Positions 13,024 through 63,855 of a DNA stretch of 64,000 nucleotides are shown here, piece after piece. The stretch comes from Acidobacteriota bacterium (GTDB lineage: Bacteria; Acidobacteriota; Thermoanaerobaculia; Gp7-AA8): assembly GCA_019244185.1 (NCBI GenBank), contig JAFATB010000019.1, forward strand, positions 160,001 through 224,000. Reading direction: 5' to 3'. The notes beneath the pieces were generated by a model. It did not search any database. It was not told the origin of the DNA and saw nothing but the letters and a program-made list of their open reading frames with translations. Position numbers and translations under genes: made by a program. Every line of letters starts with the position of its first letter. Positions within the stretch are counted from its first letter, which is position 1.

Positions 13024-13057
13024 GATCGCAGGCGATTGCGGGCGTAAGCCGACCGGG

Positions 13058-13206
13058 AGCGCCTCCGGCGGGGCGGCGCGGCCGCCAGCGCTAAGGGCTT
13101 AGCCAGTACGCACGTGCGGCTGCCGTCAACGACGTTAACCGCGACCGCACGTGCGTCTAGGCTAGGCCCTTAGCTCAGGCGGCCGTACCGCCCCGCCGGA
13201 GGCGCT
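13058..13206. repeat. About 150-bp imperfect palindrome (REPIN/MITE-like) between convergent genes
   Basis: AGCGCCTCCGGCGGGGCGG...CCGCCCCGCCGGAGGCGCT outer arms with nested GCTAAGGGC/GCCCTTAGC and ACGCACGTGCGG/CCGCACGTGCGT arms. Confidence 0.8.
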
Positions 13207-15472
13207 ATCGGTCGTTCTCCAGTCGCTGCGCGTCGATCACCGCGATGGCGGCCATGTTGACGATGTCGTTCACGTCGACGCCGCGTTGCAGGACGTGAAC
13301 GGGTTTCGCGATGCCCTGGAGAATCGGCCCGATCACCTCGGCGCCGGAGAGGCGCCAGAGCAGCTTGTACGCGGCGTTCGCGGCGTCGAGGTTCGCGAAA
13401 ACCAGCACGTTCGCGTCGCCCTGGATCGCGCTCCACGGGTAGTCGGTTTGCGCGATCTCGGGAGTGACGGCGGTGTCGGCTTGCATCTCGCCTTCGACGA
13501 TGAGATCGGGGCGGCGCTTGCGCAGGATCTCGACGGCATCGCGGACTTTCTCGGCGCCCGGATCCTTCGTCGAGCCGAAGTTCGAGAACGAGATCATCGC
13601 GATGCGCGGCTCGAGGTGGAAGCGCTTCGCCGTCTCGGCGGTCTGCTCGGCGATCTCCGCGAGCGTCTCGCTGTCGGGATCGATGTTCACCGTCGTATCC
13701 GCGAGCACCAGCATGCGGTTCTTGAACATCAGGAGGTAGGCGCCGGAGACGTGGCGCACGGTCGGGCGCGTCTTCACGATCTGCAGCGCCGGTTTGATGG
13801 TGGCGGGATAGAAGGCGCGAAGGCCGGAAATCACGCCGTCCGCATCGCCGCATTCGAGCATCATCATCGCGAAGTAATTCCGGCTGTTGAGGATCTTGCG
13901 CGCGTCGGAGAGTGTGATCCCGTGGCGGCGGCGCAGCTCGTGGAAGCGCTGCACGTAGCGCGGCAGATCGGGCGCGTGATTGATGTCGATGATCGTGATC
14001 TTCGACTCCTCGACGTGATACTTCGCGAGGATCGGCAGGAGCTCCTCGCGTCGGCCGAGGAGGATCGGGAACGCCAGACCTTCATCGACGAGGATCTTCG
14101 CGGCGCGGACGATCTTCTCCTGATCGCCCTCGGGGAACACGATGCGTTTCGGATCCTGGCGCGCGCGCGAGTAGAGCTCGTGCATCAGACCGCGCGAGCG
14201 GCCGAGCATGTGCTCGAGGCGGCGGCGGTACTCGCCGTAGTCGGTGATCGGCTGCTGTGCGACACCGGTCTCCGCGGCCGCGCGCGCGACCGCGACGGGC
14301 ACGTTGAGCAGCACGCGATAGTCGAACGGCTTCGGGATCAGGTACTCGCGTCCGAAGGCGATGCCGTCCTTGCCGTACGCGCGCAGGACAGAGTCGGGGA
14401 CGTCTTCCTTCGCCAGCTCGGCGAGCGCGCGCGACGCGGCGAGCTTCATCTCGTCGTTGATCGTCGTGGCGCGGCAGTCGAGCGCGCCGCGGAAGATGAA
14501 TGGAAACCCAAGGACATTGTTGACCTGGTTCGGGTAGTCGGAGCGGCCCGTGGCCATGATCACGTCGGGGCGCGCGGAGACGGCCTCGTCGTAGCCGATC
14601 TCCGGAGTCGGGTTCGCCATCGCGAACACGATCGGATCGTTCGCCATCGAGCGGATCATGTCCTGCGTCACGATCCCGCCGGCGGAGAGGCCGATGAAGA
14701 CGTCGGAGCCTTTGAACGCGTCGGCGAGCGTGCGGCGATCCGTCTCGACCGCGAACTCCTCCTTGTACGCCGTCATGTCTTCCGTCCGGCCTTTGTAGAT
14801 GATGCCGTGGCGGTCGACGAGCAAGGCGTTTTCCTTCCGCAGACCGAGCTTCACGTAGAGGCGCAGGCACGCCATCGCCGCGGCGCCCGCGCCGGAGATC
14901 ACCATCTTCACATCTTCGATCTTCTTGCCGGCCACTTCGAGCGCGTTGATCAGCGCGGCGGCGGAGATGATCGCGGTGCCGTGCTGGTCGTCGTGGAAGA
15001 CGGGGATGTTCATCTCCGCCTTCAGCCGCTCCTCGATCTCGAAGCACTCCGGCGCGGCGATGTCCTCGAGGTTGATCCCGCCGAACGTCGGCTCGAGCAG
15101 TTTCACCGCGCGAATGAACTCCTCGGTATCGCGCGTGTCGAGCTCGAGATCGAACACGTCGATGTCGGCGAAGCGCTTGAAGAGCACGCCTTTGCCTTCC
15201 ATCACCGGCTTGCCGGCGGCGGCGCCGATGTTCCCGAGTCCGAGGACAGCGGTGCCGTTCGTGATCACGGCGACGAGATTGCCTTTCGCGGTGTACTTGT
15301 AGACGTCCGCGGGATTCGCGGCGATGTCGAGGCAGGGAGCGGCGACGCCGGGCGTATAGGCGAGCGAGAGGTCGCGTTGCGTGGCGGTCGGCTTCGACGG
15401 CACCACCTCGATCTTTCCGGGACGTCCGCTCGCATGGTAGTCGAGGGCTTCGTCGCGGCTGTTGTCCGGCAT
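13205..15472 (-). CDS. maeB: NADP-dependent malic enzyme with PTA domain
   Basis: [26 protein letters not shown] and TGRSDYPNQ motifs; C-terminal GEMQAD PTA-like domain. Confidence 0.97.
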
Positions 15473-24742: not shown

Positions 24743-24819
24743 CGGGCAGTAGCGCAGCCTGGTAGCGTACCTGAATGGGGTTCAGGTGGTCGGGGGTTCA
24801 AATCCCCCCTGCCCGACCA
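24743..24819 (+). tRNA. tRNA-Pro(GGG)
   Basis: CGGGCAG/CTGCCCG acceptor stem plus ACCA; anticodon arm CCTGA-ATGGGGT-TCAGG; T-loop TTCAAAT. Confidence 0.97.
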
Positions 24820-25002
24820 AACACAACCCCAAAGCCCCCAACAACTTAGCTCCCACCCCTCTCTTCGACGCTCACGCCGAATCGGGCTCCGTGCCTGGTT
24901 GCGCGCCTAGTGACGTTTCCGCGTCTGCAGCCCCTTCGACTTCGTCGGAGTCGGACGATCTCGACGCCGCGGCTGCGACGATCCCCAACAAGGAGAACAT
25001 CG

Positions 25003-25218
25003 ATGAAGAAGGACTTTGTCCCCCGGCACATCCTCGCCGAGGAGCTCGGCGTGCACACGCAGACGATCGCGAAATGGGAGCGGGACGGCTGGTTCCCGCA
25101 GCCCGAACACCGGATCTCGGATCGCCTGATCCTCTACCGCCGGTCGTCCGTGGACGAGGCGATCGCGGAACGGCGCGCTCGCCAGGTGATGCGCCGCCCT
25201 CCGCGCCGCGTGGCGTAA
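25003..25218 (+). CDS. Excisionase/AlpA-like HTH protein
   Basis: AGGAGA RBS; LAEELGVHTQTIAKWERDGWFPQP HTH. Confidence 0.85.
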   Translation: MKKDFVPRHILAEELGVHTQTIAKWERDGWFPQPEHRISDRLILYRRSSVDEAIAERRARQVMRRPPRRVA

Positions 25219-25262
25219 CGCCGAAGAAGCGACTCAAGCTTCGGCGTATCGCCCGCGGGCTC

Positions 25263-26471
25263 TTGTACGACAACACCACACGCACCGCGAAGCTCTCGGT
25301 TTACGTCCTTGGCGGCAAGGGCGAGCGGCGCGTTCGCCGCACACTTCACAACGTCTCGGCCGAAGAGGCGGAGCGAGCGATGGCGACGTTCCGCGAGCGC
25401 GTCAATCGCGAGCCCGCGCAACCGCCGCCGCTCATCGCGCCGACGTTTGAGGAGTTCTACGACCGGTACTTTCCTCTCATCGTCGAAGGTCTTTCACCTT
25501 CGACCGCGAAGGACTATCGGCTCGTCGCCGAGCGGTGCCTGTTGAAACGCTTCGGATCGTGGCGGCTGTCGGACATCACGGCTGGCGCGGTGAACCTCTG
25601 GATTCGCGAACTGAAGTTGGAACGGCGGGCGGCCGGCAAACGGCCGCTCGCCGGCGCCACGATCAACGGCTACGCGAACATCCTCCGCGCGCTCGTGAAC
25701 TATGCCGTCCGCTTCGACGTGCTGGAGGAGAGCCCGTTCAAGAAGCGACTCGAACGCGAGAAGGTGAACCGCCCGAAGAACGAGCTGTCCGACCGCGAGT
25801 GCGCGGCGTTCCTCGCCGCGTTCGACGATCGAGAGGCGTTCGTGGCCGACCTACGCGCCAAGTACCGACGCGGTGAGGTCGTGCCATGCGAGCGCTACCC
25901 GACCCCGCGCGTCTTCGGCGGCAGCCGCCGCTGGGACAGCGAGGCGGCAAACGACATCTGGGAGCACTTCCACGCGCTCAAGCCGTTCTTCATCGTCGCG
26001 CTCACCACCGGCCTCCGGCTCGGCGATCTCTGTCGCCTGACGTGGAAGGACGTCCGCTGGACCGAGGGCTGGATTCAGCTCGTCATGGAGAAAACGGAGC
26101 GCGAGGTCGTCGTCCCGATCAGCGCCGCGTGCGAGGCCGCCCTCAAAGAGTGCCGCGCACGTCCCGTCGTCGGGGAGCTCGTCTTCGTCGATGAAGTCGG
26201 CGCGCCGCTCTCCGTCACCCGCATCCGCCGCGGCTTCGCGCTCGCGAAGAAGCTCGCCGGCATCACGCGCAAAGTTCGCTTCCACGACCTCCGGCACACC
26301 TACGGCTCCTCGCTCGCGTCCGACGGCTTATCGCTCGCCATCATCGGCAAAGTCATGGGTCACGCGAGCCAGATCACCACGGCTCGCTACGCACGCCCCG
26401 ATACGCGCGTCTTCGAGGCCGTTCGAGAAGCCCTCGACCGCCGCCACGGCGGCAGCTCGGATCGCCGATGA
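25263..26471 (+). CDS. Tyrosine integrase (start uncertain)
   Basis: PTFEEF, core-binding helices, TGLRLGD, FHDLRH and MGH...TARY motifs. Confidence 0.93.
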   Translation: MYDNTTRTAKLSVYVLGGKGERRVRRTLHNVSAEEAERAMATFRERVNREPAQPPPLIAPTFEEFYDRYFPLIVEGLSPSTAKDYRLVAERCLLKRFGSWRLSDITAGAVNLWIRELKLERRAAGKRPLAGATINGYANILRALVNYAVRFDVLEESPFKKRLEREKVNRPKNELSDRECAAFLAAFDDREAFVADLRAKYRRGEVVPCERYPTPRVFGGSRRWDSEAANDIWEHFHALKPFFIVALTTGLRLGDLCRLTWKDVRWTEGWIQLVMEKTEREVVVPISAACEAALKECRARPVVGELVFVDEVGAPLSVTRIRRGFALAKKLAGITRKVRFHDLRHTYGSSLASDGLSLAIIGKVMGHASQITTARYARPDTRVFEAVREALDRRHGGSSDRR

Positions 26472-39795: not shown

Positions 39796-40038
39796 CACCG
39801 TGCAGAGGAATACGAGAATGGGATCGTTGAGCGGAACTCCGAGATATCGCGGCCCTGGATCGTTGTGTGCCCACGCCCGCCAGTGGAGTAAGAACGGATC
39901 CCATGGAAAGAAGATGAGCGCCACGGCGATGGCCGTACGTAGCACCGCGAGGATCTCTCGCCGTGAACGCACACAACTCACGAGAGCGATGATCGCGGCG
40001 ATCCCGACGCCGAGGTTGAGGACCGAATAGCGTGTCAT
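39712..40038 (-). CDS. Lycopene cyclase domain protein (CrtYd-like)
   Basis: 108 aa, hydrophobic; WD...W...GPRYLGVPLND pattern. Confidence 0.7.
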   Translation of the reverse strand: MTRYSVLNLGVGIAAIIALVSCVRSRREILAVLRTAIAVALIFFPWDPFLLHWRAWAHNDPGPRYLGVPLNDPILVFLCTVLTASVLLRLDRNAGSRHADAESERGGD

Positions 40039-40343
40039 GTCCGCGCTCCTCGCCGAAGTGTGTTGCGCAGAACGAGTCTCGTGATGACGGTATGACCAAA
40101 GAGCGCTAACCATTCCTCCAGGGGCAACCGCGCGACACGAATCGGCAAGGTACCTTCAGCCGGGAAGTACCAGACACCCGTCTCGAGCGCGATCTGATCG
40201 ACGATGAACCAGAGCGCGATAAGCACAACCGACGTACTCCAGAGTCGTCCCGAGCGAAGGTCTTCCAACGTAACCGCGGGCCACGCGAACGACATCACGG
40301 CCGCAAGCAACGCGAGATCGAAGTAGAGGTAGTCGATGTTCAT
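40035..40343 (-). CDS. Lycopene cyclase domain protein (CrtYc-like)
   Basis: 102 aa, hydrophobic; DQIALETGVWYF...LPLEE pattern; ATGA-coupled to its partner. Confidence 0.75.
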   Translation of the reverse strand: MNIDYLYFDLALLAAVMSFAWPAVTLEDLRSGRLWSTSVVLIALWFIVDQIALETGVWYFPAEGTLPIRVARLPLEEWLALFGHTVITRLVLRNTLRRGART

Positions 40344-40520
40344 TTCCCACTTTGGCGAAAGTGTGAAATGACGCTTACCTGCGCCCCCGATAGGAGGATT
40401 TCGACCGTTTCCGCAGATCGTCCGCCGCTGACTACTACAATGGTTTCCGCGACGGGAGATTTTGCACAGCACTCGGCTACGCGCCGCACTGATCTTTCTC
40501 AAACCTCTATCCCCACACCT

Positions 40521-40952
40521 ATGGCGATCAACATTCGCATGGTCGGAATGGTCACGGACGCCGTTCGCAGCCTCACGTTCACCCGCTCGGGTCTTCCGCG
40601 GTTCCGATTCGGCGTCCGCGTCGGAACCGTTCGCCCGAAGCAGTACGCCGTGACGCTCTATGGCCCGATGGCGCGGTTCGCAGACACCGCCCTTCGTACC
40701 GGGCAACGCATCCGCGTCGAAGGCGCGTACCTCCGTCGGTCGTCGCCGTACGAAGGTCTCGTGCGCGCAGACATGATTCGCCACGTCGGCCGCGCGGTGC
40801 CTCCGTACTTCGGAACCATGGTGCGGTTCGTTCCCGGAGCGCCGCCGACGCCGGCCGCCGCGCGGCCTCTCGCCGCCGATGCAGACCATCGCTCGGCGCA
40901 TGCGGTCAAGACCGCGCGCGTCATTGCTGACGCGATCGCGGCGGCGGTCTAA
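40521..40952 (+). CDS. Divergent SSB-like OB-fold protein
   Basis: INIRMVG...TRSG..RFRFGV...VTLYGPMA....LRTGQRIRVEG matches the SSB OB-fold pattern. Confidence 0.7.
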   Translation: MAINIRMVGMVTDAVRSLTFTRSGLPRFRFGVRVGTVRPKQYAVTLYGPMARFADTALRTGQRIRVEGAYLRRSSPYEGLVRADMIRHVGRAVPPYFGTMVRFVPGAPPTPAAARPLAADADHRSAHAVKTARVIADAIAAAV

Positions 40953-41166
40953 CCACACGCGAGAAGACGGCTTCTCGGGAGGCGGTCGTAGCGTGCAAAT
41001 CTCCGTCGCCTCTTCATCGCCGTGAATGGGACGCGACTTCGACCGAGTCGCCTGACGATGCCGTCCGCATCAGCGATGCTGCTGCTCGCGAGTCGTGAGA
41101 TTGCACCGGCTGATTCGTCAGCCGCTCACGCGGTTCTTTCTCAAGCCATCCTTTCACTCCACTCCT

Positions 41167-41544
41167 ATGCGAAGCGTGAACAAAGTGATCCTCGTCGGCC
41201 ACCTTGCCGCCGATCCGGAGCAGTCCACCACGACCGCCGGACGGGTGCGCGTGACCTTCCCGGTCGCAACGCACCGGGATACCACCTCCGAGGGCGCGAA
41301 GAAGGACGTCACCGACTATCACCGGGTGACCTCCTGGGGGAAGCTCGCCGAAATCTGCGGCAAGTACCTCGCGAAAGGCCAAGGCGTCTATGTCGAGGGC
41401 ATGATCCTGAATCGCGCCTACGAGAAGGACGGCCAGCGCCGCTACGTCACCGAGATCCGCGCGGACGAAGTGAACATGCTGACGTGGAAGAAGCGGGATG
41501 GCGTCTCGAACGCCATCCTCAGCGATCTGCCTGACGGCGTGTAA
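41167..41544 (+). CDS. ssb: Single-stranded DNA-binding protein
   Basis: VNKVILVGHL..DPE, WGKLAE, KG..VYVEG and YEKDGQRRYVTEI motifs; no DDIPF tail. Confidence 0.95.
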   Translation: MRSVNKVILVGHLAADPEQSTTTAGRVRVTFPVATHRDTTSEGAKKDVTDYHRVTSWGKLAEICGKYLAKGQGVYVEGMILNRAYEKDGQRRYVTEIRADEVNMLTWKKRDGVSNAILSDLPDGV

Positions 41545-41745
41545 GTCCGTCGCGTCGGGGCGAGTGGCTCTCGTGCAATCTCACACTCGCTCCCACTTCG
41601 ACCGATTCGGCGATGGATTCCGGTCCGCATGTTTTCCTTCGACTGCGGACGACTTCCACGTCGCACCGGCTTCTCCTCGCAGCTGGTCTCTTTGAAAACC
41701 CACACGCACACGGCGAGCACCGGAACTCCTTAACCCTGTAATCCT

Positions 41746-41989
41746 ATGAACGCTCCTCGCTACACGCACGTGCTCCTCGACGCCGATTCGGGTGAAGCCG
41801 TGGGGGGCGATCCGCGATATCGATCAAACACCCGATGGCTCCGTCTTCGGCGTCATTCGGCGGTTCGATCGTGACGAGCCCGAGACCTACATGTGGCTCG
41901 ACGGCCTCGAGGTCATCCGACTCGCGGACGCCGCGGCGCATGTGCGGAAGCACGTCGCCTGGGCGCTCGCGCAACCCGCACCCGCATGA
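41746..41989 (+). pseudogene. Small protein interrupted at a G6 tract
   Basis: Removing one G from 41802-41807 joins MNAPRYTHVLLDADSGEAVG to AIRDIDQTPDG...AQPAPA. Confidence 0.6.
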
Positions 41990-42315
41990 CGGCGCTCGAA
42001 AAGCAGCACGCGTGGAGAAGCACGACCACCGTCTGCCCCCGGTGCGCGGCACAGCCGGGAAGTCACGCGTGGCCGAAGTCCTGGCTCCAGGAGCTGACGA
42101 TTGTCGACGGCATCCAAGCCGTCCACGGCGTGCTGTGTCGTCGGCCCTCATGCGGCTTCGCGGAGATCATCAGCCTGCGCGCCCACACCACCCCGGCCGC
42201 CGCACCCCGGCGACGCCGATGGCTCCGTGATGCCTTCGCCAAGCGCCCGGGCACGTTCGTGCTCGCGACGCTCGTGCAGGGCATCGCGATCGGTGTGCTC
42301 CTCGCGCTCGCGTAA
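41986..42315 (+). CDS. Zinc-ribbon protein with C-terminal TM helix
   Basis: CPRC...CRRPSC; C-terminal hydrophobic helix; ATGA overlap. Confidence 0.7.
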   Translation: MTALEKQHAWRSTTTVCPRCAAQPGSHAWPKSWLQELTIVDGIQAVHGVLCRRPSCGFAEIISLRAHTTPAAAPRRRRWLRDAFAKRPGTFVLATLVQGIAIGVLLALA

Positions 42316-42418
42316 CTCCTCTGGTGCGGTTCCGATGTGGAAGTCGCTCCGCACCTTGGGCCTCTGTCCCCACGCTGTAAGAACCAGAGCCGCGCCGCAG
42401 CCGCAGCCCGGCTCCCGT

Positions 42419-42751
42419 TCAGGTGCGGTCGATCACGGTCGCGTCCGGAGCGTTCTCCTTCACGGACTTGATGCCGCTGTCGCGCGCCGTGGTGGAGGAG
42501 TACATCTCGCTCGTGCCGATCACCTGCCCGTTCGTCGCGGTAAGGGTGAAGTACGGGCTCCCGTTCGTCGCGGTCTTGCGGACGTAGCGGGCATCGTCCT
42601 TCGCATTCTTGCGGACGGACTCGATGCCGTTCTCCGCGCCGCTCTTCGTCTCGTACGTCTCGCTCGTGAGGATGGTCTCGTAGTTCCCTGCGCGCAGGTT
42701 GAACCGGTACTTGCCGCTGCGGCCCTTCTCGATCACGAACGATCCTGCCAT
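42419..42751 (-). CDS. yegP: YegP/DUF1508 family protein
   Basis: Tandem F.L.A.N...I.TSE.Y repeats; AGGAGG RBS. Confidence 0.92.
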   Translation of the reverse strand: MAGSFVIEKGRSGKYRFNLRAGNYETILTSETYETKSGAENGIESVRKNAKDDARYVRKTATNGSPYFTLTATNGQVIGTSEMYSSTTARDSGIKSVKENAPDATVIDRT

Positions 42752-42892
42752 GTCCGGTCTCCTCCTGGTCCGTCACAGGAGCAGTGTTCGCGCACGCTTT
42801 CGACATGCGCGTGCCCTGTCCCTCCGAAAGACACGAAGCGTGCGGAATGGTGGCGTTCAAACCGATCCTGACTGGCGTCGACGGCCGCACGC

Positions 42893-44125
42893 TCACCGCA
42901 CGACGATCTGCACACTCGCCGTTGCCGGCCCGCACGGCGTGTCGACGGTGAGGGTCACCGTGTCCGTCCCGGCATGCGTCGCCGTGTAGGTGTGCCGCGT
43001 CTCGGGTGGCGAATGCACCGGCCCGCCGAGAGCGTTGCCGAGCGACGATGCGACGCTTCCCACTTCGCCGTGCCGCTCCTGCGTCGTGTAGGAGACGTAT
43101 GTGCTTTCGCCGACCGCAAGCGACGCCTTGCCCGCCGTGAACGATTCGATGAGCGGCTTCGCGCAGGTCCACACCGTCTCGGGTCCGCCGATCCCGGCGG
43201 AGCCGCACGCACTGTCGCCGTAGAAGGTGATGTTTGCTTCGCCGGCGCGCGCCGGCGTGTACACGACCTCGATCTCGCCGTTCGCCGAGCGCGCGCCGGC
43301 CGCGGGCGTGACCGTCCCATTATCCGTCTCCACCCACCATCGCGTGATCGAGGAACCTGCGAGGAAGAGCCAGCGTTGCTGCTGGCCGACTGCAACGCGG
43401 CCGTTCGCCTGCCCGATGTCGACGGCCGGCGCCTCGCCGATGCAGCGGGCGATCGGCAGCGTCATCGAGCTCGCGCCGCAGCGGCCGGTCACCGTGAGGA
43501 CCGGCTCGGCCGGAAGGGAAGGGAAGTAGACGCGCGCGCTGCCGCCGAACGCGCTCGACCCGGCGAGCGCGTCCCGGAAGGGCTGCGCGCCCTCGATCGA
43601 CCAGAACGAGCCGTGCTCATAGCTGAACTGGAGCGTCGTAAAGGTGAAGGGCGCGAGCGCCCCGTGTTCCGCCCCGAAGCTATTAATGATCGGCGGTGGC
43701 TCGATCGGCACTGCTGCCGTCGTCTCAGGCCCGATGTCGCAGGTGGTCGCGATCGCCGAAGCGTCATGTTCGCGCGCGCAGTGACCACCATCGCCCCCGA
43801 GGAGGGGAGGTCGCACGCCACGTCGCGGATGTGGACGCGGGCGTTCGGCTCCGAGGCTTGCCACGAGACACGGACCGGCTCCCCGTCGCAGGCGGAGCCT
43901 TCGAACGTCAGCCGCACCGTGGGCTTCGAGGTGCAGGCTGAGCCGCCGAAGCGCACGGCGCGGCGTCGCACGAGCGGCCGTGTGAGCGGGTAGCAGGCGG
44001 TGGTGTCGGCCGGCGCCGCCACCTGCTGGATCTCCTCGGGCGGCGTCTGAGCGTGGGAGGCCACCGGGGCGAAGAGAAGTGTCAGCAGGCCGATGGCTCG
44101 TGCGCGGCGGGCGATGCTTCGCCAT
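42893..44125 (-). pseudogene. Secreted Ig-like repeat protein with frameshift(s)
   Basis: The signal peptide and first domain (AIGLLTLLFAPVASHAQ...RRRAVR...NMTL) lie in a different frame from the C-terminal Ig-like repeats. The frames switch near 43760. Confidence 0.65.
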
Positions 44126-44166: not shown

Positions 44167-44808
44167 ATGCAGAAAAGCGTCAAACTCACCGGCCTCGTGT
44201 CGGCAGAACGAAACGTCCCGACCACGCGCCCATCTGGCGTGCGCTACGTATCGAAAGAGGAGGTCGAACAGTTCTTCGCCGCGATCCCGAGGGAGAACCT
44301 TCGAGATCGGCTGCTGTTCGACCTCATCTACCGTCACGGGCTGCGACGTCGCGAAGTCGCGCTCATCAGCGTGGACGACGTCTCGCTCCGCCACAGGTCC
44401 ATCTGGATCAGCCGAGTGAAGCAAGGGATCCCAGGCATGTACCGGCTACATCCGAAGACGATCGCGCTGCTGCGCGACTACCTGCCGACGCGGCACGTCG
44501 GCAACGGCCGGTTTCTCTTTCAGAGCACGAGGCGACCGGGTGCCGCGATCTCACCCTCGATGATCTACTACCTGTTCCGGCGCTATGCGACGGCGGCCAA
44601 CCTGCCGGAGGGCCGGCGGAACGTGCACGTCTTCCGGCACAGCATCGCCGTGCATTTCATGAACGAAGGCATCGACTCGGCAGACGTGAAGGACTGGCTC
44701 GGCCATCGGAGCATCTCCTCCACGATGATCTACGCCCAAGTAACGAATAAGCGGCGAGACGCGACCTACCAGCGCGTGCGCTCGTCGAAGGAGATCGCGA
44801 GGACATGA
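44167..44808 (+). CDS. FimB/FimE-like tyrosine recombinase
   Basis: RYVSKEEV, RDRLL...YRHGLR, RVKQG, HVFRHS and WLGHRSISSTMIY motifs; no N-terminal CB domain. Confidence 0.9.
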   Translation: MQKSVKLTGLVSAERNVPTTRPSGVRYVSKEEVEQFFAAIPRENLRDRLLFDLIYRHGLRRREVALISVDDVSLRHRSIWISRVKQGIPGMYRLHPKTIALLRDYLPTRHVGNGRFLFQSTRRPGAAISPSMIYYLFRRYATAANLPEGRRNVHVFRHSIAVHFMNEGIDSADVKDWLGHRSISSTMIYAQVTNKRRDATYQRVRSSKEIART

Positions 44809-44812
44809 CGGC

Positions 44813-44842
44813 CATTCACGCTTTTCTGCAAAAGCGTCAATG
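44813..44842. other. Putative tyrosine-recombinase site (12-6-12 palindrome)
   Basis: CATTCACGCTTT-TCTGCA-AAAGCGTCAATG, 11/12 arm match; inverted spacer plus one arm repeated at 44168-44184. Confidence 0.65.
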
Positions 44843-61282: not shown

Positions 61283-61786
61283 GTTGTTAGACCGCGCTAA
61301 GCGCTACGTGAAGAATTTCAACAAATCCCACGCGTTGGCGCAATGTGCGACGCGCGGCGGTGAGCGGGGCGGCCTTCACTCGGAACTCAAGCACAGGACG
61401 TTAGACACGGTCCGGCCGGATTCGTGGCGTCCTCGAGGATGCAGGGCTCGGCTATCGGACTTGCGCCGACGGCGCAGGACTGGTAGCAATCTTCTGTTCC
61501 TTCACCGACCGCAGTTCCCGAATCTGCTTCCTCAACCAACCGTCTCATGTCGCGTGCTTCGTCGCTTCCTGAAGCGTCAATCCGCAGCTTGACGGTTCGG
61601 TGGTTGATGGTAAGGATGAGGTCACCAGTTCGATCCTGGTCGTGGGCTCGCAGCGCATCCAGACGCCGGAACTCCAGCGCGCTGCCCGAAGACTGCATCG
61701 AGCGGCCGACCACATTCCGAACGTCAGAATCGTGGTCACCTTCGGTCGAGGAAGGGAGCACTCCTACCTCCTTCCTCCATTCTTCT

Positions 61787-62821
61787 ATGGGTTCGCTCCT
61801 CTCCGGTGCGTGGCCGACACCACCGCCCGCTCCTCGTCTCGACGCGTTCCAACGCCTCGCGGTCGGTGCGCCCGCATCCGCTGAACTCCCGCCTCCGGCG
61901 ACGCTCGCCGAGCTTGATCAAGTCTTCCGGCGGTTCTTCGAGGCCGCCACCGCCGTGGCGGGCCTGAGCCGCTGCACCGCACACAACTTTCAGGTGGCGT
62001 ACCGCTCGTTCCGCGCCTACCTCGTGACGCAGGTGCCGGACGACGGGGCTCCGCTCGGCGCGACCCTGCACGACATCGACGGCTGGATCGCCGTGCTCCG
62101 GACGCGTCCGCGGCCTGCCGCGGCGAACAGCATCCACCGCTACTGGCGGAGTGTCCGGGGCTTCTTCGGTTACGTTGAGCACCTGACCGGGCTCCCGTCG
62201 CCGTTCGCGGGGCTTCGGCCGCCGCGCCTGCCGGACCGAATCCCGAAGGCCCGTACACCGGCCGAGTGCGCCCGCATCCTCGCCGCCGTCGCGAACTACC
62301 CTGGCTGGTCGGCGTTCGAACGCGGCCGGAACCGCGCGCTCATCGGCATGGCGCTCTACGCTGGACTTCGCCGCGGTGACCTCGTGCGGCTCCAGTACGC
62401 AAACGTCGACGTCCAGGAGCGCACGATTCGCGTCGAAGGCGGCAAAGGTCGCGGCGGTGGAAAGGATCGGGTCGTGATGATGGCGCCGGACCTCCTCGAC
62501 ATCGTGCTCGCTTACCTCCGCGAGCGGCATCGGCGCCGGCTGGTCCTGCCCGAGTTCTTCGCGAGTACCGCAGGTCAGCGACCGATCGCTGACGTGACCA
62601 TTAACCGGCTCGTCCGACGCCTCCGAATCGCCTCCGGTGTGCCGTTCACGCTCCATAGCCTGCGGCACTCCTTTGTGACGCAGCTCCTACGTGCAGGCGT
62701 CCCGCTGCACACGGTGAGCGCGCTCGCGGGTCACACGCAGATCACGACAACCGCCGGATACCTCCGAGTGTGGGACGAGGACAAGGTTGCCGCGGTTCAG
62801 CGGCTGTCCTTCGACGGCTGA
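61787..62821 (+). CDS. XerC/D-like tyrosine recombinase
   Basis: CB domain; YAGLRRGD, GKGRGGGKDR, HSLRHSF and AGH...TAGY motifs. Confidence 0.92.
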   Translation: MGSLLSGAWPTPPPAPRLDAFQRLAVGAPASAELPPPATLAELDQVFRRFFEAATAVAGLSRCTAHNFQVAYRSFRAYLVTQVPDDGAPLGATLHDIDGWIAVLRTRPRPAAANSIHRYWRSVRGFFGYVEHLTGLPSPFAGLRPPRLPDRIPKARTPAECARILAAVANYPGWSAFERGRNRALIGMALYAGLRRGDLVRLQYANVDVQERTIRVEGGKGRGGGKDRVVMMAPDLLDIVLAYLRERHRRRLVLPEFFASTAGQRPIADVTINRLVRRLRIASGVPFTLHSLRHSFVTQLLRAGVPLHTVSALAGHTQITTTAGYLRVWDEDKVAAVQRLSFDG

Positions 62822-62832
62822 TGGTGCGCGTG

Positions 62833-63855
62833 TCACCCGGCGTCGCGTTCGATGCCTCCGAGCGGCAGGTGAAGGCGCGCCGCGTACGTCGCGTGTTCGC
62901 CCTCGAAGACGTGCGAGTACCGCTGGAGCATCGCCAGGCTTCGGTGCCCGAGCAGATCCATGCTCACGCGATCCGGCACCCCTGCCTGCCGCAGGAAAGT
63001 GGCGTAGCTGTGCCGGAGCATGTGGGGCGTCACTAAAAACCCTGCCGACGCGCTGATGCGCCGGAACAGCCGTGTCACCGCGACGAGCGGCATTGGCTGG
63101 TCGCGCCAGGTGGAAACGAAGAGCGCCGGAGTCAGTACCCGACGCTGCCCGCGAAGGGTCAGGTACGCGCGCAAGAACGCCGTCAGCTGCGGGGTCACGT
63201 ACGCGGTGCGATCGCGTCCGCCATGCCGGCCCTTGCCGCGCCGGATGAGCAGGCGTCCGCGTTCGAGGTCGAGGTCGGCGAGTTCCAACCGGAGCGCCTC
63301 GCCGCGGCGAAGCCCCGCGCAAACGTACGTCGCGATCAGCGCCACGTTTCGAGCACGTTCGAACCGATCGGCTACGAGACTGCGGGCAGAGGCGAAGACG
63401 CGATCCACTTCGGACGGGGTGAGGCAGCGCGGCTGCGGAAGCGGTGCGCGGGGACGATCGAGCAACTCGAACGGGTTCAGCGTACCGTCCAATCGTTCAA
63501 ACCGCCGGAAGATCGAGACCATCGCTTCGAAGTACGCGGCGACCGACGTGCGCTCGCAGTGCTCCATGCGGAGCGTTGCGATCCAACCTTCGATCACTTG
63601 TGTCTGCGCTGGCATATCGCCGCGCGCAAACGCGTCTGTCCGCGTCCCCCGCAGGTAGCGGGCAAATCTTCGAGCTGCGACCCGCCATCGCCGCGTCGTC
63701 GCTGGTGAGAGCCCTTCGATTCGCTCGGCCGCCAGGCAGGTTTCTTCGACACGCGTGAGGAAGGTCTCGACCGAAGCGACCGCAAACGGGCGCGATCGCG
63801 CCTGGCGGTGCCGACGATTCGGAAACCGCTCGTGAGGATAGGGAGGGGAGTGCAT
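62833..63855 (-). CDS. XerC/D-like tyrosine recombinase
   Basis: EGLSPAT; CAGLRRGE, GKGRHGGRDR, HMLRHSY and LGH...LQRY motifs. Confidence 0.92.
   Translation of the reverse strand: MHSPPYPHERFPNRRHRQARSRPFAVASVETFLTRVEETCLAAERIEGLSPATTRRWRVAARRFARYLRGTRTDAFARGDMPAQTQVIEGWIATLRMEHCERTSVAAYFEAMVSIFRRFERLDGTLNPFELLDRPRAPLPQPRCLTPSEVDRVFASARSLVADRFERARNVALIATYVCAGLRRGEALRLELADLDLERGRLLIRRGKGRHGGRDRTAYVTPQLTAFLRAYLTLRGQRRVLTPALFVSTWRDQPMPLVAVTRLFRRISASAGFLVTPHMLRHSYATFLRQAGVPDRVSMDLLGHRSLAMLQRYSHVFEGEHATYAARLHLPLGGIERDAG

Follow-up and report, generated by a model that had tools for sequence, protein, structure and literature searches.

Three adjacent gene units, lying between nucleotides 40398 and 42355 of a 64,000-nucleotide (nt) stretch of DNA from an Acidobacteriota bacterium (class Thermoanaerobaculia; GenBank contig JAFATB010000019.1, positions 160,001 to 224,000, forward strand; hereafter the window, whose first letter is position 1), were each found to be enclosed by a pair of complementary arms, and this complementarity around the three genes was confirmed as real and beyond chance. 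We favour, with moderate confidence, the reading that the arms are the two ends of a messenger RNA, and that their 5'-3' pairing would clamp the message of each unit and lengthen its lifetime. That the pairing takes place in RNA, where the transcripts start and end, and what the helix does, we infer from the DNA sequence. As every unit has an arm sequence of its own, neighbouring messages would pair with themselves only.

Complementary arms around three adjacent genes

The arm pairs had been pointed out in an earlier inspection of the letters of the window (the sequence-only reading), and RNAduplex recovered all three, with the bulges and the G-U pair then described. In unit 1, which encodes an SSB-like protein, nucleotides 40449-40467 pair with 40993-41009 at -24.0 kcal/mol, with two bulges; in unit 2, which carries ssb, 41088-41106 pair with 41573-41590 at -29.7 kcal/mol, with one bulge; and in unit 3, which contains two small open reading frames (ORFs), 41644-41663 pair with 42333-42353 at -35.0 kcal/mol, with one bulge and one G-U pair. 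The gene content is likewise as that reading had it, as is its statement that the arms differ between units while staying complementary within each, non-cognate combinations within the window reaching only -4.0 to -17.6 kcal/mol. In addition, the fold of nucleotides 41030-41600 shuts on the arms of unit 2, with a z-score of -3.88.

For the chance control, the 100 nt upstream of each unit were locally aligned with the reverse complement of the 100 nt downstream, and the scores were compared with those of 1151 random pseudo-units of the same length placed elsewhere in the window. Units 1, 2 and 3 scored 12.0, 15.5 and 14.5, values reached by 10, 0 and 0 of the pseudo-units, respectively, so that the arms exceed chance. 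The strict alignment score was used because an RNAduplex null on the 100-nt flanks is uninformative, loose interior loops giving about -60 kcal/mol for any pair.

Recurrence and covariation in related genomes

Relatives were sought in 41 genomes at the DNA level and in the reference collection at the protein level, and the loci retrieved are about 70% identical. Together, the window and 11 of these loci yielded a catalogue of 26 units, comprising units 1, 2 and 3 and a further SSB-like unit, termed unit X, which stands between ssb and unit 3 in loci L035 and L042. All units share one order of parts, namely an upstream box with two TTCGAC-like words 9-10 nt apart, the 5' arm some 45 nt after it, a small hairpin, a TCTTTCTCAA or CTCTTTGA(A/C)A motif, a G-poor leader, the ORF and a local hairpin, and an equivalent of the box precedes each unit at all loci. 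The catalogue revealed that (i) the arms form 16 to 32 Watson-Crick pairs in all 26 units, (ii) the minimum-energy RNA fold of the whole unit shuts on the arms in every one of the 26, with 14 to 25 arm-arm pairs, and (iii) of the 23 units that have a choice, 22 pair best with their cognate 3' segment.

Arm sequences differ among units and lineages, and complementarity is kept throughout. The inner helix of the ssb units reads GTGAGATTGCAC, GTGGGATCGCAG, GTGGGATTGCAGCC or GAGATTGC, and that of the SSB-like units GGAGATTTTGCAC, GAAGATTGCAC or GGTTGCAGCC, each being matched by its own 3' arm. The proteins of unit 1 and of unit X from L035 are homologues with 36% identity, yet their arms are unrelated, although complementary within each unit. 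Unit X, ssb arms of the GCGAAG type and a diverged unit 3 were all seen in L035, and each of them was seen in L042 as well. The latter locus (nucleotides 1501-1910) has an ssb frame that stops early, at 1806, with the SSB sequence resuming in another frame before the 3' arm; both arms are kept.

Eleven ssb units were aligned with MAFFT (alignment A1). Because the 3' arm is out of register in four of the 11 rows, the pairing counts from this alignment are conservative; even so, 75.4% of the cells of the arm helix pair, a share that falls to 57.1% or less when the partners are slid. Four pairs changed on both sides, and the covariation of 0.128, as compared with 0.083 in shuffled alignments, was equalled by none of 500 shuffles. 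For unit 3 the evidence is of conservation: 83.9% of the cells pair, against at most 42.8% with slid partners, and 10 of the 20 arm pairs are invariant in an alignment with a mean identity of 68%, far above the conservation of the coding sequence. At two of the unit 3 pairs a wobble (four of nine sequences each) alternates with a Watson-Crick pair, G-U with A-U (two of nine) and U-G with C-G (three of nine); these wobbles fit folding of the sense strand, since the template strand would have A-C mismatches at the same places.

The arms do not accompany ssb genes as such. Among 20 ssb loci at 66 to 86% protein identity, 10 have arms scoring 12.5 to 16, whereas the other 10 score at most 9.5, the 99.9th percentile of the window null being 12.5. 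Loci without arms have a different upstream region, devoid of both the box and the leader, which assigns the arms to the module rather than to the gene. Five of these armless loci (L034, L036, L038, L040 and L041) share another upstream element, approximately ATCTCAATCTTGAGC..GAAGGAGG, together with a conserved downstream stretch; by its sequence, this is a second, unrelated ssb flank family in the same class.

The module is rare. Traced by the second protein of unit 3 in a sample of 401 genomes of the class, it was found in nine, and these belong to one family. An exact 12-mer search in the genus gave forward and reverse matches 460 to 490 nt apart on one contig in five genomes only, single matches being possibly due to chance. 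When nhmmer profiles of the 5' modules were run against the 5.3-Mb assembly, the significant matches were the three known units only, and the next best had E values of 0.011 and 0.88.

A local hairpin competing for the 3' arm

In each unit the 3' arm is overlapped by a competing local hairpin, as the sequence-only reading had proposed: the respective local 3' segments have their minimum-energy folds at nucleotides 40977-41014, 41557-41594 and 42323-42355. The 5' arm is built of an outer part of 5-6 bp, a bulge or mismatch, and an inner part of 10-14 bp. The loop of the local hairpin corresponds to the inner part of the 3' arm, its 3' strand is the outer part of the 3' arm, and its 5' strand is similar in sequence to the outer part of the 5' arm; the long-range helix and the local hairpin are, in consequence, mutually exclusive. 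Moreover, the 5' strand of the hairpin changes along with the 3' arm between lineages, the stem being GCGAGTG/CACTCGC in the window and GCGGGCG/CGCCCGC in four relatives. The loop is predicted to present unpaired bases at which the 5' arm could land. In terms of context, the 5' arm thus stands between the box and the G-poor leader, and the 3' arm inside a terminator-like hairpin.

This geometry of loop plus 3' strand passed a strict automatic test in 16 of the 26 catalogued units, and inspection of the same folds found it in 22; in two of the remaining four, the segment ends too early. On alignment A1, 52.3% of the cells of the local 3' hairpin pair at register 0, as compared with 74.3% at register +1, and the register of the hairpin varies between lineages.

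The predicted accessibility of the start region differs little with the state of the arms. Over the region from -18 to +6, the mean unpaired probability was 0.53 in the free message and 0.58 with the 5' arm blocked (19 units, with some unit 3 starts mis-picked). As the start is similarly accessible with or without the clamp, a translational lock of the hok type is not indicated by these predictions; from the same modelling, the leader seems built to stay open.

Rearrangement of the units among genomes

Units in the window run head to tail, and other arrangements occur among the relatives. In two genomes (L006/L030 and L007/L025), unit 1 is inverted and divergent from units 2 and 3, with its arms kept and its own box included, so that two boxes stand back to back. 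In L009, unit 2 is absent and unit 1 is followed directly by unit 3, with a single box at the joint, while in L035 and L042 the SSB-like unit is placed after ssb. Judged from these sequences, units are inverted or lost as whole modules. Since the inverted unit 1 includes its box and the joint of the unit 2 deletion lies at a box, the breakpoints fall outside the arms, which argues against the arms being recombination ends.

In the divergent arrangement, about 110 nt separate the two 5' arms, with little content besides the two boxes. As this interval must house both promoters, each box is probably part of a promoter and the 5' arm would lie near the transcript 5' end. On this and the sequence context we consider the box a probable promoter or regulator site, and the 5' arm probably stands at the 5' end of the transcript or no more than a few nucleotides from it.

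Inspection showed no direct repeats flanking the arms. Contigs of four DNA runs compared with nucleotides 39800-43000 had no joints in the units, and those of three metagenome runs were colinear with 40353-43000; as rare forms are dropped from contigs, the evidence is weak.

The favoured reading and its alternatives

If the arms pair in the mRNA, each unit would form an expression module complete in itself, carried by a mobile island. The 5' end of the finished message would pair with the exposed loop of the local hairpin, forming the inner helix of 10-14 bp, and would next displace the hairpin's own 5' strand to form the outer helix of 5-6 bp past the bulge, the outcome being a helix of 15-25 bp that links both ends of the mRNA. 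Most likely, such a helix would protect the message against RNase J and RNase E/G at its 5' end and against exonucleases at its 3' end, and short SSB-type messages would thereby be longer-lived; the helix could also serve as a site for RNase III. The host genome encodes this enzyme as well as RNase E/G and RNase J. A more specific and tentative version is a self-sealing message, in which the transcript would terminate first and its 5' end would then invade the hairpin through the loop as a toehold of 10-14 nt, yielding a pseudo-circular mRNA with a distinct address for each module. If true, this would be a kinetic device of designed appearance, and a general way of obtaining short messages of great stability in a new host.

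Several results weigh against end pairing in the mRNA. No RNA runs containing the stretch are listed, and the region 40200-42600 contains no -35/-10 promoter of the sigma-70 type. The promoter role of the box is likewise our interpretation, and short-motif searches gave counts near chance (leader motif, 9 against 6.6 expected; box, 3 against 2.4; two-word box, 12 against 11.9), such motifs being too frequent for use genome-wide. With loops of 15-19 nt and weak T tracts, the local hairpins would be poor as canonical terminators. The related sequences are few and close (the nine genomes of one family), and unit 3 is conserved without an excess of covariation (0.064 as compared with 0.062 in shuffled alignments; 231 of 500 shuffles as high). 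RNAalifold on alignment A1 did not recover the arm helix and paired the 5' core with a coding stretch; the misalignment of the 3' arm columns in four of the 11 rows explains this failure, the result of the tool itself being negative. Finally, summed duplex energies hardly favour the sense strand (-936.6 against -925.9 kcal/mol).

The same RNA pairing could instead work as a switch or processing signal, with the 5' arm catching the nascent loop and 3' strand of the hairpin to block termination and permit read-through into the next unit, or with RNase III cutting the long helix to free each unit from a longer precursor, in the manner of rRNA processing stems. The mutual exclusion of the two helices in every unit, the conserved bulge or mismatch between outer and inner helices, the head-to-tail order of the units and the presence of an RNase III gene in the host would all suit such a role, which we nevertheless regard as unlikely. 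The last unit, unit 3, has the same design despite being followed by a convergent DUF1508 gene, so that control of read-through is not the general purpose of the clamp, and the divergence of unit 1 from unit 2 in two genomes means that the units cannot all stem from one precursor. The nearly equal start accessibility in the 19 units scored, moreover, gives no indication of a hok-like lock. Pairing might alternatively take place in single-stranded DNA (ssDNA) during transfer or rolling-circle replication, where the arms would loop out each gene and serve priming, the loading of SSB or DprA, or early transcription in the manner of Frpo or phage N4 elements. The SSB-type proteins encoded by the units and the DprA-like and Replic_Relax-like genes of the island speak for such a role, and in plasmid leading regions structured repeats are known to be scattered ahead of ssb genes (PMC11541004). 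This explanation appears improbable to us, given that the minus strand of the two intergenic regions folds, as DNA, no better than shuffled sequence (z = -1.77 and -1.12, equalled by 11 and 24 of 200 shuffles, respectively), that the pairing spans a gene whereas Frpo is a local hairpin, that no -35/-10 matches exist in the stretch searched, and that the wobbles of unit 3 would be A-C mismatches on the template strand. In addition, unit 1 lies on the strand opposite to units 2 and 3 in L006/L030 and L007/L025, with arms kept, and hence cannot share a transferred template strand with them. Apart from a weak Replic_Relax match, scans of the island proteins recognised neither relaxase nor type IV secretion genes, so that the terms conjugative and leading region, and ssDNA transfer itself, are not established for this island. 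A candidate ssDNA promoter of the Frpo/ssi type was therefore set aside, the locus showing neither a template-strand hairpin that folds better than chance nor -35/-10 boxes in 40200-42600 nor, in two genomes, a uniform gene orientation.

That the arms are ends for DNA recombination or transposition, whether as integron-like cassettes, invertible segments or terminal inverted repeats, we judge highly improbable. Each gene is indeed flanked by inverted repeats, four tyrosine recombinases are encoded in the window, and the presence, order and orientation of the units vary among genomes. Nevertheless, the breakpoints lie outside the arms, as described above, no flanking direct repeats were seen on inspection, and the contigs of three metagenome runs are colinear across the units, with the reservation already made about rare forms. 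The 5' strand of the local hairpin, for which recombination sites have no need, changes with the 3' arm, and bulged, imperfect arms suit folding better than crossover. An integron cassette would have a local attC hairpin containing the cassette boundary, while here the arms are 0.5 to 0.7 kb apart and the breaks lie at the box. An invertible segment or an inverted-repeat mobile cassette was also considered and found no support: the inversion includes the box, inspection showed no direct repeats beside the arms, and the contigs of four runs contain no joints, the last point being weak evidence. Of the three options put forward by the sequence-only reading, the clamp or switch in mRNA is accordingly the one favoured by the co-varying arms, their context, the behaviour of the modules and the sense-strand wobbles; its Frpo-like and integron-like options found no support.

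Relation to known systems

To our knowledge, pairing between the untranslated-region (UTR) ends of one bacterial mRNA is documented for a handful of genes only. Single-gene pairing of 5' and 3' UTRs is known from hbs, hok and icaR, and the claim of the sequence-only reading that no named system has exactly this layout stands. Measured against these examples, the present units show complementarity beyond chance, with compensatory change in the ssb units and conservation only in unit 3. The UTR pairing of icaR reportedly recruits RNase III. In the hbs mRNA of Bacillus subtilis, a 14-bp pairing of the 5' UTR with the 3' UTR, proven by compensatory mutants, restricts nuclease attack and prolongs the half-life (PMC5737220). 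The likeness extends to a short message for an abundant DNA-binding protein, with one complement in the 5' UTR and the other near the terminator in the 3' UTR; hbs, however, is a single gene with 14 perfect bp upstream of its terminator, whereas here three adjacent genes have bulged helices of 15-25 bp, each with its own sequence. Furthermore, the 3' partner here belongs to the terminator-like hairpin itself, being its loop and 3' strand, so that the two structures compete, and an effect on stability would be expected by analogy with hbs.

Three traits link the tac/fbi pairing of hok from plasmid R1 to the present case: in the full-length mRNA the very 5' end is base-paired with the 3' end, the message has alternative structures, and the gene belongs to a mobile element (PMC9841398). 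The hok pairing locks translation of a toxin and operates with an antisense RNA and 3' trimming, while the units studied here encode SSB-type proteins and family-less small proteins, no antisense RNA is known for them, no search aimed at one having been made, and their clamp leaves the predicted accessibility of the start site unchanged. In icaR of Staphylococcus aureus, both UTRs of one mRNA base-pair as well (PMC3868564); the icaR pairing reportedly covers the ribosome-binding site, in contrast to the G-poor leader predicted to be open here. What is new at the present locus is the occurrence of three adjacent orthogonal clamps, the competition through a loop toehold with the unit's own terminator-like hairpin, the conserved bulge at the junction, and the reuse of the design around homologous as well as unrelated genes. 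The locus thus represents a natural test series, with three co-varying clamps of one design throughout and homologous genes with unrelated arms, and it suggests that end pairing may be a means by which mobile elements enhance short establishment messages, ssb among them.

Other structures share single features with the units. The attC site of integrons, a local hairpin that contains the cassette boundary, lies at the 3' end of every cassette; integron cassettes are, like the units, single-gene modules in a row, with imperfect bulged palindromes and tyrosine recombinases nearby, but the arms described here lie 0.5 to 0.7 kb from each other and the module boundaries are outside them. The stems flanking 16S and 23S ribosomal RNA serve RNase III processing of one precursor and enclose stable RNAs. 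They recall the present locus in the presence of consecutive units, each with its own long-range helix, and differ in that the units here are protein-coding and apparently have promoter-side boxes of their own. Frpo/ssi elements recur as structured sequences linked with ssb and other early genes on a mobile element, Frpo being a local hairpin upstream of a gene that rebuilds the -35 and -10 boxes (PMC11541004); the units differ from them by gene-spanning pairing, by the lack of such boxes in 40200-42600 and by mixed orientation.

Anatomy of the three units

All parts of the three units lie on the forward strand. The box of unit 1, ATTTCGACCGTTTCCGC (40398-40414), consists of two TTCGAC-like words 9-10 nt apart and stands about 45 nt 5' of the arm. 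The 5' arm (40449-40467) is supported by RNAduplex pairing, the unit catalogue and the whole-unit fold. It is followed by the leader (40492-40520), in which a TCTTTCTCAA motif precedes a G-free stretch running to the ATG, and by an ORF for an SSB-like OB-fold protein of 143 amino acids (40521-40952), whose match to PF00436 (E = 0.0028) is below the cut-off. Both the loop and the 3' strand of the local 3' hairpin (40977-41014) are supplied by the 3' arm (40993-41009).

In unit 2, the box ACTTCGACCGAGTCGCC (41036-41052) is followed by the 5' arm (41088-41106), made up of the outer helix GCGAGT, a bulged C and the inner helix GTGAGATTGCAC. Immediately 3' of the arm is a small hairpin, CGGCTGA/TCAGCCG (41107-41124), the stem of which is altered on both sides in relatives. 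The leader (41134-41166) again has its motif, TTCTTTCTCAA, and then a G-free stretch to the ATG, and the ORF (41167-41544) is an ssb gene of 125 codons (PF00436, E = 1e-29). Nucleotides 41573-41590, the 3' arm, make up the loop and 3' strand of the local 3' hairpin (41557-41594).

Unit 3 begins with the box ACTTCGACCGATTCGGC (41595-41611). The core of its 5' arm (41644-41663), CGACTTCCAC, is invariant in all nine genomes, and its leader motif is TCTCTTTGAAAAC (41687-41699). In this genome the first small ORF (41746-41989), of no family, has a broken reading frame: a run of six G at 41802-41807 has one G more than in the four aligned orthologues, which splits the ORF into two frames, and metagenome contigs from runs X1 to X3 agree with the window at this place. 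The second small ORF (41986-42315) encodes 109 amino acids of no known family, and an ESM Atlas search with this protein gave scores below 0.9 throughout and no lead. As in the other units, the 3' arm (42333-42353) is the loop and 3' strand of the local 3' hairpin (42323-42355). The convergent DUF1508 gene occupies 42419-42751 on the reverse strand. More generally, a small hairpin is often present after the stop codon, and the local 3' hairpin is followed by a pyrimidine-rich tract.

Just 5' of unit 1, at 40340-40371, lies a palindrome of low G+C content, TCATTTCCCACTTT GGCG AAAGTGTGAAATGA. The contigs of runs X1 to X3 all end there, and short alternative 49-mers are present. A scan of the window with Rfam at gathering scores found one tRNA and no other family; within 40300-42500, the single match (Xoo5, E = 0.88) is at chance level.

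Genomic setting

The window has a G+C content of 64%. A tRNA gene at 24743-24816 is followed downstream by a tyrosine integrase gene, a DprA-like gene, an M23 peptidase gene and a weak Replic_Relax match, and the ORFs up to about 45 kb are mostly without family match. The start of the integrase ORF, of 561 amino acids, overlaps the 3' end of the tRNA gene (24743-26471), an overlap that is probably the left border of an island. From the tRNA, the integrase, the DprA-like neighbours and the mostly family-less ORFs, we place the three units in an integrated mobile island. Searches of the island proteins against NCBIfam and PHROGs added DprA only. Tyrosine recombinases had been counted as five by the sequence-only reading; four were confirmed in the window, as generic PF00589 matches, and two of the tyrosine recombinase genes are convergent at the right end of the window (61547-63855).

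A short tyrosine recombinase ORF at 44167-44808 is bracketed by a perfect 13-nt complement, TGCAGAAAAGCGT / ACGCTTTTCTGCA, at 44168-44180 and 44818-44837. The 5' copy overlaps the start codon of the recombinase, and the 3' copy coincides with the first half and the loop of a palindrome, ACGCTTTTCTGCAAAAGCGT; the 13-mer is absent from all related loci retrieved. This complement may represent a fourth end-pairing unit, in this case covering a start codon, or a recombination site. Outside the island, the window holds two local inverted repeats, one at 1831-1937 with arms of 39 nt, 92% complementarity and 29 nt between them, and one at 13050-13214 with arms of 82 nt, 83% complementarity and a gap of 1 nt.

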